64,000 bases of DNA from Tabrizicola sp. (GCF_041911175.1 NZ_JAYRPN010000071.1:5854-69853), one strand, 5' to 3'; positions 6,265 through 33,211 are shown, counted from the first letter of the stretch. Notes: generated from the letters alone by a model not told the origin. Program-made: numbers and translations.

Positions 6265-6348
6265 GCCCGAGTGGTGGAATGGTAGACGCAGGGGATTCAA
6301 AATCCTCCGCCGCAAGGCTTGCGAGTTCGAGTCTCGCCTCGGGCACCA
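6265..6348 (+). tRNA. tRNA-Leu (anticodon CAA), CCA encoded
   Basis: Acceptor stem GCCCGAG/CTCGGGC+ACCA, D-loop GGAATGGTAGAC, anticodon arm GGGGA-TTCAAAA-TCCTC, long variable arm, T-loop GTTCGAGTC. Confidence 0.96.
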
Positions 6349-27395: not shown

Positions 27396-27910
27396 TTTAC
27401 GCCCTCGACGGTATCGCCCCCAGCATCGCCCCCTCCGCCTGGGTTGCCGATGAAGCCACGCTGATCGGCAAGGTGATCGTGGAAGCCGATGCCTCCATCT
27501 GGTTCGGCGCGGTGATCCGCGGCGACAATGAGGAGATCCGGGTCGGCGCCGGAACCAACGTGCAGGAGAACGCAGTCCTGCACACCGACATGGGCTATCC
27601 CCTGACCATCGGCGCCAACTGCACCATCGGCCACAAGGCCATGCTGCACGGCTGCACCATCGGCGAGGGCACGCTGATCGGCATGGGGGCGACCGTCCTG
27701 AACGGCGCGAAGATCGGCAAGGGCTGCCTGATCGGCGCTTGCGCACTGATCACCGAGGGGAAGGAGATCCCGGACGGCGCGCTGGTGATGGGGTCACCCG
27801 GCAAGGTTGTGCGACAGCTGGACGAGACCGCGCGGGCGAAGCTCTTCGCCTCTGCCGCCGGCTACCAGGCCAATGCCCGGCGCTTCAAGGCCGGCCTAAG
27901 CCCCGCCTGA
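27392..27910 (+). CDS. Gamma carbonic anhydrase-family protein
   Basis: Hexapeptide repeats, IRGDNE, NVQE..VLHTD, IGH.AMLHGC. Confidence 0.92.
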
Positions 27911-28246
27911 CTCGGGCGGGCCTTCCTCGATCAGCTCGATGGTGATGCCCTGACGCGCCGCATGGCTGCGAAGCTCCCGCAGGACGATCTGCCGGTTCGG
28001 CAGCTTGGGCGCCACCACGCGCAACAGCTTGCGATAGTCCTGCGCCCCCAGGCGTTCGATAATTTCCAGCGCATCGAAGGTCTTGCAGAACAAGGGTGTC
28101 ACGACCAGTTCCAGCCCGGCGGGCAGCGGAAGAAAGCCGTCGAAATCGCCAAGCTCGATCGAGGCGAACTCCTCCGGACGCAGACTGCCCTCGGCCGCCT
28201 TCGCCTCCGGAATACCGATGACCAGACACCTGAGCTTTTGCGACAT
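27896..28246 (-). CDS. Hypothetical protein
   Basis: ORF with a SD-like GAGG before MSQKLRC; [19 protein letters not shown]...LRVV pattern. Confidence 0.65.
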
Positions 28247-28428
28247 CTCTCCACCTCTCATCAAGTGAGGCGCCGCCAAATCGTCTGTCTTCAGGACTCG
28301 CGTCGGGGCCGACCATTGCTCCGGTCAAAGGCCGGCACCGCACCGCGTTACATGTACAACCGGGAATTTACTGGTATTCCCGCGCAAGACAAGGCCTGCT
28401 TCCACAATCATGGGGAGAAGTCGCGCGA

Positions 28429-29445
28429 ATGACCGAGCCTGAGCTTCAGCGCCTGTTGTCCGGCCTGCCGCTGCCCGCGATGCTGGTCCGGCATGACGAT
28501 CAGGTCCTGGCCGTGAACGCCCCCGGCCACGCGCTTCTGGGCGACGGCATCACTGGCCGCCACCCCGCGATGGCCGTCCGCGCGCCTGCGGTGCTGGAGG
28601 CGATGGCGGCAGTGGCCCGCGATGGTGGCGTGCAGGAGAGCCGGATGGTGCTCCGCCGCGACGGGCAGGAGGCGGTGCTGCAGGTCACCCTCTCCGACCA
28701 GGGCGAGGGGTTGGTGCTGGCCGTCTTCCGCGACGCGACCGAGGAGGAGCGGGCGGGCGAGATGCGGCGGGATTTCGTGGCCAACGTCTCCCATGAACTG
28801 CGCACGCCCCTGACCGCGCTGATGGGCTTCATCGAGACGCTGAAGAATGCCGCGAAGGACGACCCCGCCGCGCGGCAGCGGTTCCTCGGGATCATGGAGG
28901 CCGAGGCGGGGCGGATGAACCGGCTGGTGCGCGACCTTCTCCAGCTTTCCCGGGTGGAGGCGGAGGAGCGGGTGCGCCCGAAGGAGGCGGTGGACCTGCG
29001 GGGGCTGCTGGAGGGTGTGATCTCCGCGCTGAAGGGGGTGGCGGAGCGTAAGGGGGACCGGGTGGAGCTGGTGGGGGAGGCGGTGACGGTGCCGGGGGAT
29101 CATGACCAGCTGGTGCAGGTTTTCACCAACCTGATCGAGAACGCGCTGAAATACGGGGGCGCGGGGCAGGTGGTGCGGGTCTCGCTTGCCCCGGAGGAGA
29201 CGGTGCGCGGCCCGGCGGTGCGGGTCGAGGTCGTGGACGAGGGGGAGGGGATCGATCCGGTCCACCTGCCGCGGCTGACCGAGCGGTTCTACCGGGTCGA
29301 TTCCCATCGATCCCGCGAGATGGGGGGGACGGGGCTGGGGCTGGCCATCGTGAAGCACATCGTGAGCCGCCACCGGGGCTGGCTGCGGGTGGAGAGCGTG
29401 GTGGACGAGGGGAGCCGGTTCTCGGTGGTGCTGCCGGTGGGGTGA
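28429..29445 (+). CDS. phoR: PhoR-like cytoplasmic sensor histidine kinase (PAS-HisKA-HATPase)
   Basis: RRDFVANVSHELRTPLT H-box, NLIENALKY, RLTERFYRVD..RSR..GGTGLGLAIVKH; no TM segments. Confidence 0.85.
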   Translation: MTEPELQRLLSGLPLPAMLVRHDDQVLAVNAPGHALLGDGITGRHPAMAVRAPAVLEAMAAVARDGGVQESRMVLRRDGQEAVLQVTLSDQGEGLVLAVFRDATEEERAGEMRRDFVANVSHELRTPLTALMGFIETLKNAAKDDPAARQRFLGIMEAEAGRMNRLVRDLLQLSRVEAEERVRPKEAVDLRGLLEGVISALKGVAERKGDRVELVGEAVTVPGDHDQLVQVFTNLIENALKYGGAGQVVRVSLAPEETVRGPAVRVEVVDEGEGIDPVHLPRLTERFYRVDSHRSREMGGTGLGLAIVKHIVSRHRGWLRVESVVDEGSRFSVVLPVG

Positions 29446-29470
29446 GGTGGGGGCCGCAAAGGACTCCGGC

Positions 29471-29550
29471 TGTCCACGGTGGACATTTTCGGATTATGGT
29501 TTGCAAGCAATGGGTTGCGCGTGGGCGATAGGGGTTTATTAAGGGGGTGG
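29471..29550 (+). repeat. ~80-bp dispersed element, copy 3 (palindrome TGTCCACGGTGGACA at 29471-29485)
   Basis: Block order and spacing match the other copies; lies between phoR and the low-GC TIR gene. Confidence 0.75.
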
Positions 29551-29652
29551 TTAATGAAGTCAATATTGCGGAGATTCGGCTTTCAGCACCATCTCTGAAG
29601 TAAACTCAAGAAAGTTCTGCGCGTTTTGAACGTCGAAGCCAAGATTGGTCCT

Positions 29653-32211
29653 CTAGTTTCGTCGAACGCGAGCAATAATCTGACCGAGTTCTCCAGACGC
29701 TTGGAGTTCCGGTGCAAACCCGTTCGCCAAGGCAACGGGCTGGCCGCTTGACAGCAAGGCACGCACATACGTCTCCGTCAGCGCGTTTACGTAAGACGGC
29801 CATATCGCTTCGTTGGAGGGCTGGCCCCGTGCTTCGTCAAGCTCTCTGACGGCCTGAGCTGCGGCCACCGACTCGCCGAAACTTGCCATCATCCGCCAAC
29901 GTTCGGCCTTAAGTTGAAACCGCTCTGGATCAAGTCTGATCGCTTGGTCCATACTCTCGATGGCAGCCGGAAAGTCTCCCGTGAACTCCGCTTCCTTTGC
30001 ATAGATTTCGAATGGCGCCGCATCCGCGCCGGGATGACGTTCTAAGTCGCCAAGTGCATTCTCGAATAGGCTGTCGATATTGTCCGGCACGGGGTCGTTC
30101 GATTTATCGCGACGAAACTTCCACTCCAGGTACACATTGGCGAGAGCACTCAAGCTGAAAACCGTGCGCTTCAAACCAACGTAAATTTTGGCGTAGCGCT
30201 CTGCCTTCTCGAAATCCGGTTTCCAGCTGGCCAGAATACACCTAACAAGCGGTCTATAAATGTACTCCAATCGTCGATTTTTGTCACGATTCAGAGAAAT
30301 CGCTCGCTCGTATGCCTTGATCGCTTCGGGGAAGTTGCGCTGATACTCGTGCAGATCGGCAGCCAGAAATGCAGCGATGGGTTTGCTCCGGTGGTCTGCT
30401 TCCAGCCTTGTGATGCAAGCTTCTGCTTCAGAGTATTTTCGCATTCTTGTCGCTGTCAAGCAAAAATAGCGATCAATCTCAACTTTAGACGCGTCGCGAA
30501 ACTCGGCACGACTGTCATGTGCTTTCTTGAGAAGCCGATAGGCAGGTTGCCATTTCCGTGCATGATAGAGCCTGATTCCGGCCTGAAACCAATGCGCTGC
30601 CGAAACAAAGGCGCCCAAGCTGTTCGGCAGACTGTCAACGCCGGATAGTAGCGCGGCGTTCACCCTTGCTTCGAGCCGGATGTACTCATGATTTCCCTCG
30701 TCCGAAACCGTTGTCATCTCAAAGGGACTCGCTGCGAATGCTTTCTGCGCCCCTGCGGCCCACTGCACAAGTTCTGGACGAATTAGTTGACGGTTCAAAC
30801 GACTAGCCAGCAAGGGAGTCAGTCGGTAGATGTCATCGGTTTCTCTTTCGACCAAGCCAAGATTCAGCAACCGGCTGAGCACGCGAATTATTGAGACTGA
30901 AGGTGTAACCGCCTTCTCTATGTCGACGATATGACACGGTGTGACATCATTCAGAAAGAGAAGCGTCTTCTGTGCATTCAGGTCATCGCGAAGCTGTGCA
31001 AAAGCCCACCGTACAAATGCAGTGATGCTCTCCGCCATCCGGTCGCCACGCTGTGCCAACATTGCCTCGACGTTGTCGAAACTGTCGATCCGGGCGGCGG
31101 ACCGGACGATACCCACAAGAAACCCGACGGTGCCGTTCGCTGCCAGCGCGACGCGCTTTACATCTTCGTCGCTCCAGCGAGACGGGTTTGTGTCAAAGTA
31201 GCCCACAAGTTCATAGCAAAAGTTTGTCATCTCCTCTTCACCCATGGTGGGCACTCGGAAGGCGACCATCTTCTCCGAGCATTTGATCAGCCTGGTGCCC
31301 GACAGAGGTTGCTGAGACAATACGAACAGTTTTGGTCTCGTAGCTGGAGAAAGTGCCAGCGAAACATCGTCCAACCACTCGGGAAGCTCAACCTCCTCTT
31401 GGATGATCCGACCGTGTCGAAGAATCAGATAATTTCCGGCCTGATATATACGTTCAATCGCTGTTGCTACTGCGGCGGTATCGCCTTCTGCAGTCCCTTG
31501 AAGTATGGCCTGCAATGTTTCCAGGTTCGCACCAAAAGCCTCGCTTTCTATCCTAAGCAGAAGCTGTCGAGGCAACGTTGCTTCATTGATCTCGATCACA
31601 ATGGCCGCACCGTTCGGGGTCAGATTGCGATTAAGGTCCGACACCAACCCTTCGCGGCCAACGCCATTGAATCCCGAAACCCAGCAGGCCGGTTGCAGGG
31701 TGAACCTGTCACGCTGGAGACTTTTGCGCAACGCACGAACAAGAGTGTCTCGCTGCATGCGGGGATGGTCTGACTGGAGGAGCGGCTCGGCTACGGAAGA
31801 GATGAGTGAAACTGCTTTTTGGACTGATGCATTCGCCTCGGAGGCTCGATAGTCAGCTAGGGGCCTGAGTGCTTCGAAAACTGGCTTCAAAGCTTCGTCC
31901 ATTCCGTCGCGCCAGGAAATCGGGTAATCGTCGAGGCGGGCGATCACCGGCTTCACCAAACCAAGTCGGTACAGTGAAGCTGCCTGTTCGATTTCGCGAA
32001 CGCAGCCGACGCTGCTTGGGTAGTTCCGCGACCAAAAGACTACAAATACTCGTGCTTTTGGCAGTTCTTGAAGCCCAATTTCATCCCACATATTGGCGCC
32101 GAGACGGCCAGTTTTTGAGTATAGGTAGACCCAATCTGACGGGAACGCCTCCCAGGCGCTCTCGGCAAATTCAATATCTTTTCCTGAGACTGAATAGAAC
32201 AATGGGTACAT
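29653..32211 (-). CDS. TIR - STAND-like NTPase (degenerate) - winged helix - TPR protein; NLR-like anti-phage candidate
   Basis: TIR pattern LFYSVSGKD...VFVVFWSRNY.SS.GCVREIEQA; Walker A-like GFNGVGRE; wHTH LSRLLNLGLVER...YRLTPLL; helical TPR-like C-terminus; spot-count GC about 40-60% vs ~68% in flanks. Confidence 0.75.
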   Translation of the reverse strand: MYPLFYSVSGKDIEFAESAWEAFPSDWVYLYSKTGRLGANMWDEIGLQELPKARVFVVFWSRNYPSSVGCVREIEQAASLYRLGLVKPVIARLDDYPISWRDGMDEALKPVFEALRPLADYRASEANASVQKAVSLISSVAEPLLQSDHPRMQRDTLVRALRKSLQRDRFTLQPACWVSGFNGVGREGLVSDLNRNLTPNGAAIVIEINEATLPRQLLLRIESEAFGANLETLQAILQGTAEGDTAAVATAIERIYQAGNYLILRHGRIIQEEVELPEWLDDVSLALSPATRPKLFVLSQQPLSGTRLIKCSEKMVAFRVPTMGEEEMTNFCYELVGYFDTNPSRWSDEDVKRVALAANGTVGFLVGIVRSAARIDSFDNVEAMLAQRGDRMAESITAFVRWAFAQLRDDLNAQKTLLFLNDVTPCHIVDIEKAVTPSVSIIRVLSRLLNLGLVERETDDIYRLTPLLASRLNRQLIRPELVQWAAGAQKAFAASPFEMTTVSDEGNHEYIRLEARVNAALLSGVDSLPNSLGAFVSAAHWFQAGIRLYHARKWQPAYRLLKKAHDSRAEFRDASKVEIDRYFCLTATRMRKYSEAEACITRLEADHRSKPIAAFLAADLHEYQRNFPEAIKAYERAISLNRDKNRRLEYIYRPLVRCILASWKPDFEKAERYAKIYVGLKRTVFSLSALANVYLEWKFRRDKSNDPVPDNIDSLFENALGDLERHPGADAAPFEIYAKEAEFTGDFPAAIESMDQAIRLDPERFQLKAERWRMMASFGESVAAAQAVRELDEARGQPSNEAIWPSYVNALTETYVRALLSSGQPVALANGFAPELQASGELGQIIARVRRN

Positions 32212-32278
32212 AGCTTCGGTGCTCCAACGCCAAGCGCCAGAGCAAAGCTATCGTGACCAGATCCGTTTGGGAAGTCCC

Positions 32279-33211
32279 TCACAACCTCCCCAACCGCTCC
32301 GTCAGGAGCCGGTAGAACCCCTCCCGGTCCACGCCGCCCATGAACATCGCGTTGGGCTCGCGACCCGTCACCCGCCACCAGTCGGCGACGGTCATGCCGA
32401 GGGTCAGCTCCGATCCCGTCTCGATCTCCACGTTGATGTGGCGGCCGTGGAAGAGGGCGGGCTCCAGGAGGTAGGCGATCACGCAGGGGTCGTGCAGGGG
32501 GGCGCCTTCGCTGCCATACTTGGCGGTGTCGAAGCGTTCGAAGAAGTCGGTCCAGCTGGCGACGGCCTGGCCGACGGGGGTGCCTAAGCTGCGCATCTCC
32601 TCCACCCACGCCCGCGAGGTCAGGGCCTTGTGGGTCACGTCCAAGGGCATGACCACAAGGAGAACGCCGGATTTGAACACGATGTCAGCGGCTTCCGGGT
32701 CGACATAGATGTTGAATTCGGCCGCCGGGGTGATGTTGCCGCCCTCGAAATAGCCACCGCCCATCAGGACGATCTCGGCCACCTTCGGCACGATGTCGGG
32801 GGCGCGGCGGAAGGCGGTGGCGATGTTGGTGAGCGGTCCGAGCGGGCAGAGGGTGATGCTGCCGGAAGGATGGGCGCGCAGCGTATCGATCAGGTAGTCG
32901 ACGGCGTGGCCGGGCTGCAGGGGATGGGTCGGCTCGGGCAGGGGAACGCCGTCCAGCCCGGTCTTGCCGTGGACATGCTCGGCGGTGACGAGCTTGCGGG
33001 TCATCGGCGCGTCGCAGCCGGCGTAGACCGGGGTGTCGCGACGGGCGAGTTCCACGATGACGCGGGCGTTCTTCTGGGTGAGGGGGAGCGGCACGTTGCC
33101 CGCGACGGCGGTGAGGGCGAGGACCTCAAGCTCCGGGCTGGCCAGCGCGAGGAGGATGGCGACGGCGTCGTCCTGGCCGGGGTCGGTGTCGATGATGATC
33201 TTGCGCGGCAT
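32279..33211 (-). CDS. Inosine/uridine-preferring nucleoside hydrolase
   Basis: IIIDTDPGQDDA, GNITPAAEFNIYVDPEAA, PLHDP. Confidence 0.94.
   Translation of the reverse strand: MPRKIIIDTDPGQDDAVAILLALASPELEVLALTAVAGNVPLPLTQKNARVIVELARRDTPVYAGCDAPMTRKLVTAEHVHGKTGLDGVPLPEPTHPLQPGHAVDYLIDTLRAHPSGSITLCPLGPLTNIATAFRRAPDIVPKVAEIVLMGGGYFEGGNITPAAEFNIYVDPEAADIVFKSGVLLVVMPLDVTHKALTSRAWVEEMRSLGTPVGQAVASWTDFFERFDTAKYGSEGAPLHDPCVIAYLLEPALFHGRHINVEIETGSELTLGMTVADWWRVTGREPNAMFMGGVDREGFYRLLTERLGRL

Follow-up and report, generated by a model that had tools for sequence, protein, structure and literature searches.

We analysed a stretch of 64,000 nucleotides of DNA from Tabrizicola sp. (NZ_JAYRPN010000071.1:5854-69853, hereafter the window), in which a single gene of low guanine-plus-cytosine (GC) content stands between a histidine kinase gene and the gene of a nucleoside hydrolase (Table 1). 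Its 852-amino-acid (aa) product combines a TIR domain, a STAND-like module, a winged helix and a TPR-like solenoid. An initial annotation of this DNA had proposed a horizontally acquired, one-gene, NLR-like anti-phage module. As described below, homology places the gene in a remote clade of the validated TIR-NLR defence family, and an anti-phage role is probable.

Table 1. The TIR gene, its parts and its flanks, with positions counted from the first nucleotide of the window.
Feature	Position	Strand	Basis or remark
Left flank, histidine kinase (HisKA + HATPase_c)	28429..29445	+	Pfam; protein 78-81% identical in syntenic relatives
Foreign cargo segment, ~2.7 kb, solely the TIR gene	29555..32278		blastn breakpoints, GC dip
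TIR-STAND-like-winged-helix-TPR gene, complete, 852 aa	29653..32211	-	ORF list; stop codon 29653-29655
TIR domain, aa 1-146	31774..32211	-	A3 profile, domain model, Foldseek
Glu73 codon, putative catalytic Glu, motif G-C-V-R-E	31993..31995	-	Alignments
Nucleotide-binding-domain-like core of the STAND module, aa 171-320, Rossmann-like beta/alpha	31252..31701	-	AF2 model
Non-canonical P-loop G180-F-N-G-V-G-R186-E187-G188	31648..31674	-	Arg for Walker A Lys, Glu for Ser/Thr
Walker-B-equivalent strand Y-L-I-L-R265-H266-G-R268	31408..31431	-	Arg-His for the acidic pair; hhalign
Sensor-1-equivalent strand F-V-L-S299-Q300-Q301	31309..31326	-	Arg absent
Helical (ARC-like) and winged-helix domains, aa 321-470 (winged helix 411-470)	30802..31251	-	Secondary structure of the model
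TPR-like alpha-solenoid, aa 509-852, presumed sensor	29656..30687	-	Pfam, model, A1 profile
Right flank, inosine-uridine-preferring nucleoside hydrolase	32279..33211	-	Pfam IU_nuc_hydro 2e-105; 88% identical in L024

The gene and its cargo site

The open reading frame (ORF) is intact on the minus strand, and its ATG start agrees with the family consensus N-terminus MxPIFFSVSS. Its composition was indeed found to be far from that of its flanks: the GC content is 0.51-0.56 within the gene and 0.65-0.72 on both sides, the GC content at third codon positions (GC3) is 0.573 compared with 0.77-0.93 in eight neighbouring genes, and the gene is the sole stretch of the 64-kb window to fall under the mean minus 2 standard deviations in a composition scan. 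The position reported between a kinase and a nucleoside hydrolase was also borne out by Pfam on both sides. The same 2.7 kb was recovered from 20 activated-sludge, wastewater and bioreactor metagenomes (at least 11 studies, 2019-2025), its presence being scored by sampled words, of which 95-100% matched; this recurrence of an identical sequence excludes an assembly artefact for the gene.

A GGAG is located 10 nt ahead of the ATG. No sigma-70 consensus promoter and no intrinsic terminator was found in the intergenic regions scanned, and the gene may be transcribed by read-through from the same-strand hydrolase gene 67 nt upstream or from a non-consensus promoter. Short contigs from three metatranscriptomic runs and one RNA-Seq run (sludge and wastewater) matched the gene at 100% identity; they fall in window positions 30044-32221, with the flanking kinase and hydrolase genes essentially uncovered, and are weak evidence of its transcription. 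The upstream regions of different loci aligned poorly with one another. A weak motif, ATAGC(A/T)(G/T)TTGCT followed some bases on by TTGGAG, was seen ahead of the start codon in the window (32212-32278) and in two loci with 62%-identical homologues (L005 and L023), with differing leader lengths; it could act as a promoter or ribosome-binding region and move along with the gene.

Syntenic relatives of the host were recovered by a metagenome scan with the histidine kinase. One of them, L024, has the same gene order as the window and proteins 70-90% identical to its own: the genes for YicC, Gmk, a hexapeptide protein and orf127 lead up to that of the kinase, and beyond the cargo come those of the hydrolase, a BNR protein and a trypsin-like protease. 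The blastn homology to L024 and to two further relatives (L025 and L026) stops at window positions 29528-29554 and restarts exactly at 32279, the stop codon of the hydrolase gene, and the cargo segment so delimited coincides with the GC dip. The corresponding gaps hold other sequences: a TacA antitoxin (2.7e-24), a GNAT toxin and an unknown low-GC ORF of 342 aa in L024, a GNAT remnant in L026 and another low-GC sequence in L025. In a fourth relative, the cargo (L031:1207-2966) is a gene for a DUF262/GmrSD_N protein (PADLOC NsnA 2e-57; PD-T4-2_A 5e-28) overlapping that of a RiboL-PSP/MAE_28990 HEPN protein (1e-30), and a GNAT-toxin remnant at 994-1188 suggests a toxin-antitoxin pair as the earlier occupant of the site. 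The site between kinase and hydrolase is a small hotspot in which defence and toxin-antitoxin genes replace one another as cargo, and the TIR gene was swapped in. Horizontal acquisition, as proposed in the initial annotation, is thus shown directly by syntenic relatives with different cargo at the same site and by homology that breaks at the ends of the segment; the hotspot supports both the acquisition and a role in defence. At the cargo borders, flanking direct or inverted repeats were not above chance, no tRNA gene lies near the site (the sole one is at 6265-6348) and no integrase was found.

Several further sequences of this region deserve a description. About 109 bp past the kinase stop codon (window 29446-29554, especially 29471-29533) are conserved in the relatives up to the breakpoint, and a 65-nt part of them resembles a second intergenic site (L024:11425-11486) at 77% identity; it may be a short repeated element marking the recombination site. 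Between the hexapeptide-repeat gene and the kinase, a 127-aa ORF (window 27896-28279, minus strand) is 86-88% identical in three relatives and had no Pfam match. The 342-aa ORF of L024 (8136-9164, minus strand), beside the TacA-GNAT pair, has a GC content of 0.46-0.54 and a hydrophobic, signal-peptide-like N-terminus; no Pfam or PADLOC match was obtained for it, and it may be an uncharacterised defence or cargo gene.

Domain architecture and relation to a validated TIR-NLR

Searches with the single sequence were nearly blind for this gene product, and family profiles were required. Pfam TIR_2 (PF13676) scores the window protein at 18.9 bits, under its cut-off of 28; the same model reaches 31-63 bits in 10/10 more distant relatives, and a precomputed PF13676 match is present in many close homologues. 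A profile (A3) of the N-terminal 150 residues, built from a 34-sequence superfamily alignment in which just three positions are invariant (F5, S61 and E73), matched 45 solved TIR-domain sequences in the PDB at E-values of 1e-5 to 1e-21. Among them were 9m0n (1.4e-21), Cat1 (1.4e-17) and AbTIR (1.5e-9), Cat1 being the closest solved TIR outside the family, and TLR1/2/6/10, Roq1, RPP1, RUN1 and the SPARTA TIR-APAZ were also matched; a phmmer search of the PDB with the window protein alone returned only Cat1, at 0.086. The isolated domain was modelled with a pLDDT of 93.4, and its top 50 PDB Foldseek matches were all TIR domains (TM-score up to 0.73). Model, Foldseek and profile agree on a flavodoxin-like beta-alpha TIR fold with the Glu on helix C. 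This Glu73 is invariant in a 59-sequence clade alignment as well as in the 34-sequence alignment, is kept in 128/128 superfamily members possessing a TIR domain, and aligns with the Glu of the WVxxE motif in 9m0n and Cat1.

The full-length AF2 model (pLDDT 84, pTM 0.77) is most similar in the PDB to the STAND-TPR protein 6mfv (Foldseek 1.7e-9). It matches the plant TIR-NLR RPP1 at 4e-8 over about 530 columns (529), RPP1 chains being the best structural matches for its N-terminal 530 residues; NRC2, Avs3, SAMD9, Cdc6/ORC and NLRP/NOD2 are also among the best matches. Strands and helices alternate over residues 175-319, a core for which Foldseek returned NB-ARC, Cdc6/ORC and Avs3, and over which Pfam AAA_16 is weak in the window protein (E 0.016) and above threshold in the relative P0154. 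Helices at 325-405 precede a winged helix (helices 411-422, 428-435 and 441-451, strands 454-458 and 461-464), which is the most conserved domain of the protein and at the equivalent place of which P0154 has a DprA_WH match. The model and Foldseek thus give the STAND layout of a P-loop core, a helical domain and a winged helix (Leipe et al. 2004). In the C-terminal part, Pfam detected TPR_2 (4.5e-9), TPR_16, TPR_1 and TPR_8, the model shows about 17 helices (509-851) with a pLDDT around 90, and the profile of the window clade matched consensus TPR proteins. Conservation is fairly even between domains, the C-terminal TPR half being slightly the most variable, a pattern more in line with a conserved target than with one that evolves rapidly.

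The domains read in the initial annotation therefore all reappear in the profiles, the AF2 model and Foldseek: the N-terminal TIR fold, the catalytic Glu at the position given (E73 of C-V-R-E), the winged helix (three helices and a beta-hairpin at 411-464) and the reported 350 or so residues of TPR-like helices (about 340, residues 509-851), all in a one-gene TIR-STAND-winged-helix-TPR architecture. The P-loop-like segment stood in part, as GFNGVGRE at residues 180-187 does lie in a STAND/NB-ARC-like module and lacks the canonical Lys.

We identified 76 full-length homologues, nearly all of 845-870 aa, which align end to end at 41-80% identity. With 70 invariant columns among 59 sequences that reach down to 41% identity, the gene is, to judge by the alignment, under strong purifying selection. 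The family is small: an exhaustive HMMER scan of 1.84 billion cluster representatives retrieved only 88 relatives at E up to 1e-3, nearly all of the same length and architecture. The clade of the window protein was found in only 13 of 185,579 species-representative genomes, all of Alphaproteobacteria (Breoghania, Peteryoungia, Rhizobium, Devosia, Prosthecomicrobium, Rhodobacter, Elioraea, Sphingomonas and Acetobacteraceae).

The link to a known system was obtained through more distant relatives, which we refer to as the sister clade. The PADLOC check suggested in the initial annotation gave a divided answer, as the window clade itself is unmatched (including its members P0019 and P0071), while distant members of the family (P0150, P0153, P0154, P0158 and P0140) match the TIR-NLR model of PADLOC (824 positions) over their full length at 1e-31 to 1e-50. 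Matches to this model extend to relatives from Pseudomonas aeruginosa, Agrobacterium and Ruegeria, and sister-clade members reach it at 1e-10 to 1e-50. An alignment of the window clade (A1) and one of the sister clade (A2) were compared by hhalign, with 100% probability and an E-value of 1.8e-42 over 755 aligned columns. The A2 profile matches PDB chain 9m0n_A, an 824-aa protein deposited as 'Tetratricopeptide repeat protein', at 2.3e-140 across residues 1-819, and A1 aligns to the 9m0n sequence alone by hhalign with 90.4% probability (E 1.4e-6, 708 collinear columns). It should be noted that hmmsearch of PDB sequences with the A1 clade-only profile did not reach 9m0n, and that bridging through A2 and hhalign was needed. 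Across about 160 printed residues, 9m0n is identical to the TIR-NLR of Table S2 in Rousset et al. 2022 (pFR90, P4 hotspot, Klebsiella pneumoniae SB5442; PMC9122126), a single gene encoding TIR, STAND and TPR regions that shields E. coli from a broad range of phages, including P2-like ones (PMC9122126). Our literature search found no paper on PDB 9m0n/9umd or on the mechanism or structure of TIR-NLR. On this chain of homology, the window gene belongs to a remote alphaproteobacterial clade of the validated TIR-NLR family, missed by the curated profile.

Relatives of 27% identity spanning residues 3-696 were also seen on megaplasmids of Ralstonia solanacearum and R. pseudosolanacearum, where they are annotated 'hypothetical protein' (e.g. 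CP022795.1:93108-95222). In CP023015.1, the Ralstonia gene is broken by an IS5/IS1182 transposase.

Nucleotide pocket, TIR motif and proposed function

The functional columns were read from an alignment of 129 full-length superfamily members. Where canonical motifs would read GxxxxGK[ST] (Walker A) and hhhhD[DE] (Walker B), the window protein has GFNGVGRE and LILRHGR. The Walker A Lys position is Arg in about 124/129 members (GVGRRS in 9m0n) and Lys in only five; the following Ser/Thr position is Glu187 in the window clade and Arg or Lys in the sister clade and TIR-NLR. By hhalign, the Walker B strand pairs with FILDEGG or IIDDGG of the sister clade, many members of which have an LDEGG or IDDGG Walker B, and 9m0n has FFLDDG; in the window clade, R265, H266 and R268 are at least 90% conserved. 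The sensor-1 strand aligns with VVIQRR, IARR or ASRYR of the sister clade and 9m0n (SRYR in the latter), and in the window clade S299 is invariant and Q300 at least 90% conserved. Because the validated TIR-NLR has GVGRRS, the Arg P-loop reads as a family trait compatible with defence; the remaining pocket substitutions are, in this alignment, specific to the window clade. A charge-swap salt bridge, through covariation of the P-loop +1 position with Walker B, was not supported, as P0077 and P0080 pair GRKT with RH; several sister-clade members, which pair GRRT with R/K, contradict it further.

Such a pocket could belong to a decaying relic, an inactivated NLR with eroded ATPase motifs. Of the residues expected in Walker A (Lys and Ser/Thr), Walker B (the acidic pair) and sensor-1 (Arg), none is kept, and a Lys-to-Arg change of the P-loop is a classic loss of function in plant NLRs. 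However, R186, E187, R265, H266, S299 and Q300 are each either invariant or conserved to at least 90% across 59 sequences, which favours a re-purposed pocket over a decaying one; the frame of about 850 aa is intact in more than 60 homologues down to 41% identity, the Arg P-loop is also present in the functional, validated TIR-NLR, and the identical gene is found in the 20 metagenomes of 2019-2025, with fragments in metatranscriptomes. Decay is therefore very unlikely.

The replacement of Lys/Thr in Walker A, of the acidic pair in Walker B and of Arg in sensor-1 suggests activation without hydrolysis of nucleoside triphosphate (NTP), and an assembly that would be independent of NTP hydrolysis and perhaps of NTP binding too. 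We tentatively propose, as a possibility we hold to be less likely than not, that the window clade is a naturally 'NTPase-dead' NLR which, if functional, would oligomerise upon ligand binding and activate its TIR domains without nucleotide hydrolysis. In such a protein the cluster of Arg186, Glu187, Arg265 and His266 might fill the nucleotide pocket or re-purpose it, possibly for another ligand, and this we regard as just as tentative. Eroded STAND motifs have precedents in iSTAND and iSTAND2 of MoxR-vWA systems (Kaur et al., PMC8195603) and in KpAvs8, a working sensor with degenerate Walker motifs described in a 2026 survey (PMC13581612); neither is the family of the window protein.

The TIR domain carries a substitution of its own at residues 69-72 (window 31996-32007), where the clade has Gly69-Cys70, with Cys70 invariant, and the sister clade and TIR-NLR have Trp-Val (WVxxE). 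The Trp of WxxxE influences product chemistry in other TIR domains, and its replacement by Gly in the window clade would be in keeping with an enzyme that, after the same sensing and assembly, makes a signalling nucleotide (a cyclic ADP-ribose isomer or an ADP-ribose conjugate) for an effector encoded elsewhere, in the manner of Thoeris. The TIR domains of the sister clade also match the Thoeris ThsB models of PADLOC at 1e-6 to 1e-11. On the other hand, the closest solved TIR outside the family, Cat1, is an NAD+-degrading effector, no conserved partner adjoins the gene in 19 loci (see below), the cargo segment is solely the TIR gene, and the validated TIR-NLR gene is active on its own in a heterologous host (PMC9122126). 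We consider such signalling unlikely, as NAD+ depletion is more parsimonious than signal production when no effector partner is present.

If TIR-NLR, Avs and plant TNL receptors are taken as a guide, the trigger, oligomerisation, NADase chemistry and abortive infection can be put together as follows. In an uninfected cell, the monomer would be auto-inhibited. The C-terminal TPR solenoid would bind a phage-derived protein, and binding would free the STAND/winged-helix module for oligomerisation, probably without NTP hydrolysis and perhaps without NTP binding. The oligomer would join the N-terminal TIR domains into composite active sites around Glu73, which would hydrolyse NAD+, so that the infected cell would run out of NAD+ and the infection would be aborted.

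The genomic context of other family members was surveyed at 19 loci for which flanks were available, 7-10 kb of which were examined. The neighbours change from locus to locus and none recurs as a conserved partner, in agreement with the proposal of a module without a partner. Low GC is a trait of the family, in keeping with frequent transfer: at all 19 loci the GC content of the gene is below that of its flanks, the difference being 0.03 to 0.21. The expectation that homologues would lie in defence islands held for a part of the survey, as defence, toxin-antitoxin or mobile-element genes were found in the flanks of at least 7 of the 19 loci. These were an Xre/RES pair adjoining the family member (L001), a serine recombinase with ParB and Toprim (L002), three HipBA pairs with AbiEii and GmrSD (L003), a recombinase, transposases and a Zorya-like SNF2/EH_Signature/OmpA cluster (L008), a prophage-like region (L009), and type IIG restriction-modification alone (L016) or with PDC-S06 (L019). 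In L008 (14592-21656), the neighbours of the family member, P0049, are a serine recombinase gene, a pair of transposase genes and a four-gene cluster that encodes an SNF2 helicase, an EH_Signature protein, an OmpA-like protein and a long protein with a faint 'Apolipoprotein' match; by its gene content, this cluster looks like a type I Zorya system.

At the other loci the family members are, like the window gene, solitary insertions among housekeeping genes. Known defence or mobile-element genes were absent from the flanks of these loci (about 12 of 19), which would also suit a function other than phage defence, namely STAND-type signalling (growth arrest triggered by stress or a metabolite), defence against plasmids or mobile elements, or an addiction module of the island. 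STAND-TPR proteins include regulators such as MalT and AfsR, the hotspot carries a toxin-antitoxin pair in L024, and the eroded NTPase site departs from canonical NLR behaviour. However, a DNA-binding output domain is absent and the N-terminal effector is a TIR domain with its catalytic Glu intact, the homology to a phage-blocking protein is full-length, and several loci have restriction-modification, Zorya-like, AbiE, GmrSD or PDC genes. A function of this kind appears improbable to us, to about the same degree as TIR signalling.

Besides the loci with no such neighbours, several observations weigh against an anti-phage function. The window protein had no TIR-NLR match in PADLOC at E up to 1 (its only match, BrxC at 0.051, is spurious) and nothing significant in NCBIfam, and its identity to the validated TIR-NLR is just 16-20% or so, so that function could have drifted. 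No family member was found in the viral contigs of IMG/VR, and both tblastn of 9m0n against a phage database and a fold search of BFVD were negative. The TPR domain is not hypervariable, diversifying selection not being seen at the resolution used. The NTPase site is eroded in the window clade, which in canonical NLRs would be a loss of function, and the WxxxE Trp is replaced by Gly69. The RNA contigs are undirected and could reflect DNA carry-over. Finally, anti-phage and NADase activity are, for this clade, predictions by homology.

Considering the architecture, the invariant Glu73, the full-length homology to the validated TIR-NLR and the hotspot context, we nevertheless think it probable, by roughly two chances to one, that the product of the gene is an NLR-like anti-phage protein of the TIR-NLR family, sensor and effector in one, and that the gene is the sole, horizontally acquired cargo of the hotspot. 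If functional, the clade would extend the validated family to remote Alphaproteobacteria that PADLOC profiles miss, in genes now labelled 'hypothetical' or 'TPR protein', and would provide a compact NLR-like receptor of about 850 aa with an eroded and conserved ATPase site. It would allow a direct test of whether STAND/NLR assembly needs nucleotide, a point relevant to plant and animal NLRs, and, should the NTPase-dead proposal be true, it would be a minimal model for nucleotide-independent NLR activation. Through the hotspot, which has neither integrase nor tRNA gene, sludge bacteria that are close relatives of one another swap defence and toxin-antitoxin cargo, including at least one uncharacterised gene. 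Phage predation shapes community function in wastewater bioreactors, in which the host lineage is common.

Comparison with known systems

The initial annotation had pointed to Thoeris, CBASS/Pycsar and Avs-like systems. The NLR-like single-gene type was upheld; as for the class, TIR-NLR (Rousset et al. 2022) is the closest system known, and identity with an Avs1-5 protein or a Thoeris component was ruled out in favour of a remote TIR-NLR clade. Avs/AVAST proteins (Gao et al. 2020, 2022) follow the same logic, with effector, STAND module and TPR-like sensor arranged from N- to C-terminus along a single polypeptide. Avs3 (PDB 8dgc) is structurally similar to the window protein (Foldseek 1e-6), and the degenerate Walker motifs of KpAvs8 (PMC13581612) are a precedent for it. 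However, the window protein matched no Avs model in PADLOC or NCBIfam, it is much smaller than Avs1-4, and its effector is a TIR domain, whereas the characterised Avs1-5 effectors are a nuclease, a protease or SIR2.

Thoeris ThsB is likewise a bacterial TIR protein with a catalytic Glu, and relatives of the window protein have weak matches to ThsB models. The TIR domain of the window protein is fused to its own STAND-TPR sensor, and a ThsA effector (SIR2/SLOG or transmembrane) is not a neighbour in the window or at any of the 19 loci. In iSTAND and iSTAND2 (Kaur et al. 2020, 2021; PMC8195603), an eroded STAND module is similarly retained as sensor or scaffold. Membership of iSTAND (PF19995) was ruled out for the window protein, which has no PF19995 match and no MoxR or vWA gene nearby; a weak PF19995 match was seen in the distant relative P0099.

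Plant TIR-NLRs (RPP1, Roq1), like the window protein, have a TIR domain followed by an NB-ARC-like module and an equivalent catalytic Glu, and the window TIR superposes on those of RPS4, RPV1, RPP1 and RUN1 with TM-scores of 0.6-0.73. Their sensor is an LRR, whereas the window protein has TPRs, no C-JID and a P-loop without Lys; the relation is one of domains, not of orthology. The E. coli TIR-II, a single TIR and TPR protein whose defence is abolished by mutation of the TIR active site (Nat Commun 2024, PMC11350192), resembles the window protein by description only, as one polypeptide with TIR and TPR. In TIR-II, about 30% of the members carry an ATPase domain as well, and the system is widespread, also in Caudoviricetes (PMC11350192), whereas the window clade is rare (13 loci in the 185,579 species genomes).

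TIR-NLR itself (DefenseFinder Rst_TIR-NLR; PADLOC PDLC03015; PDB 9m0n/9umd; P4-like satellite of K. pneumoniae SB5442) is, like the window gene, a single gene for about 820-850 aa in the order TIR, STAND, winged helix and TPR. The two proteins are collinear homologues over their full length, with an invariant TIR Glu and a GxxGxG-R P-loop, and both genes are swappable cargo in variable hotspots. The differences lie in the pocket, the TIR motif and the carrier. Of the NTPase motifs of TIR-NLR (GVGRRS, FFLDDG and an Arg after strand 4), the window clade shares only the Arg P-loop; it is without the Walker B acidic pair (RH versus DD) and the sensor-1 Arg (SQQ versus SRYR), and in WxxxE it has Gly-Cys where TIR-NLR has Trp-Val. 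The validated gene resides on a P4-like satellite, whereas the window clade is chromosomal in Alphaproteobacteria, no viral or satellite copy having been found. The system type is thus known and validated elsewhere, and the window clade is a divergent version of it; what is new is this divergent clade, its fully substituted yet conserved NTPase pocket, and the cargo hotspot between kinase and hydrolase.

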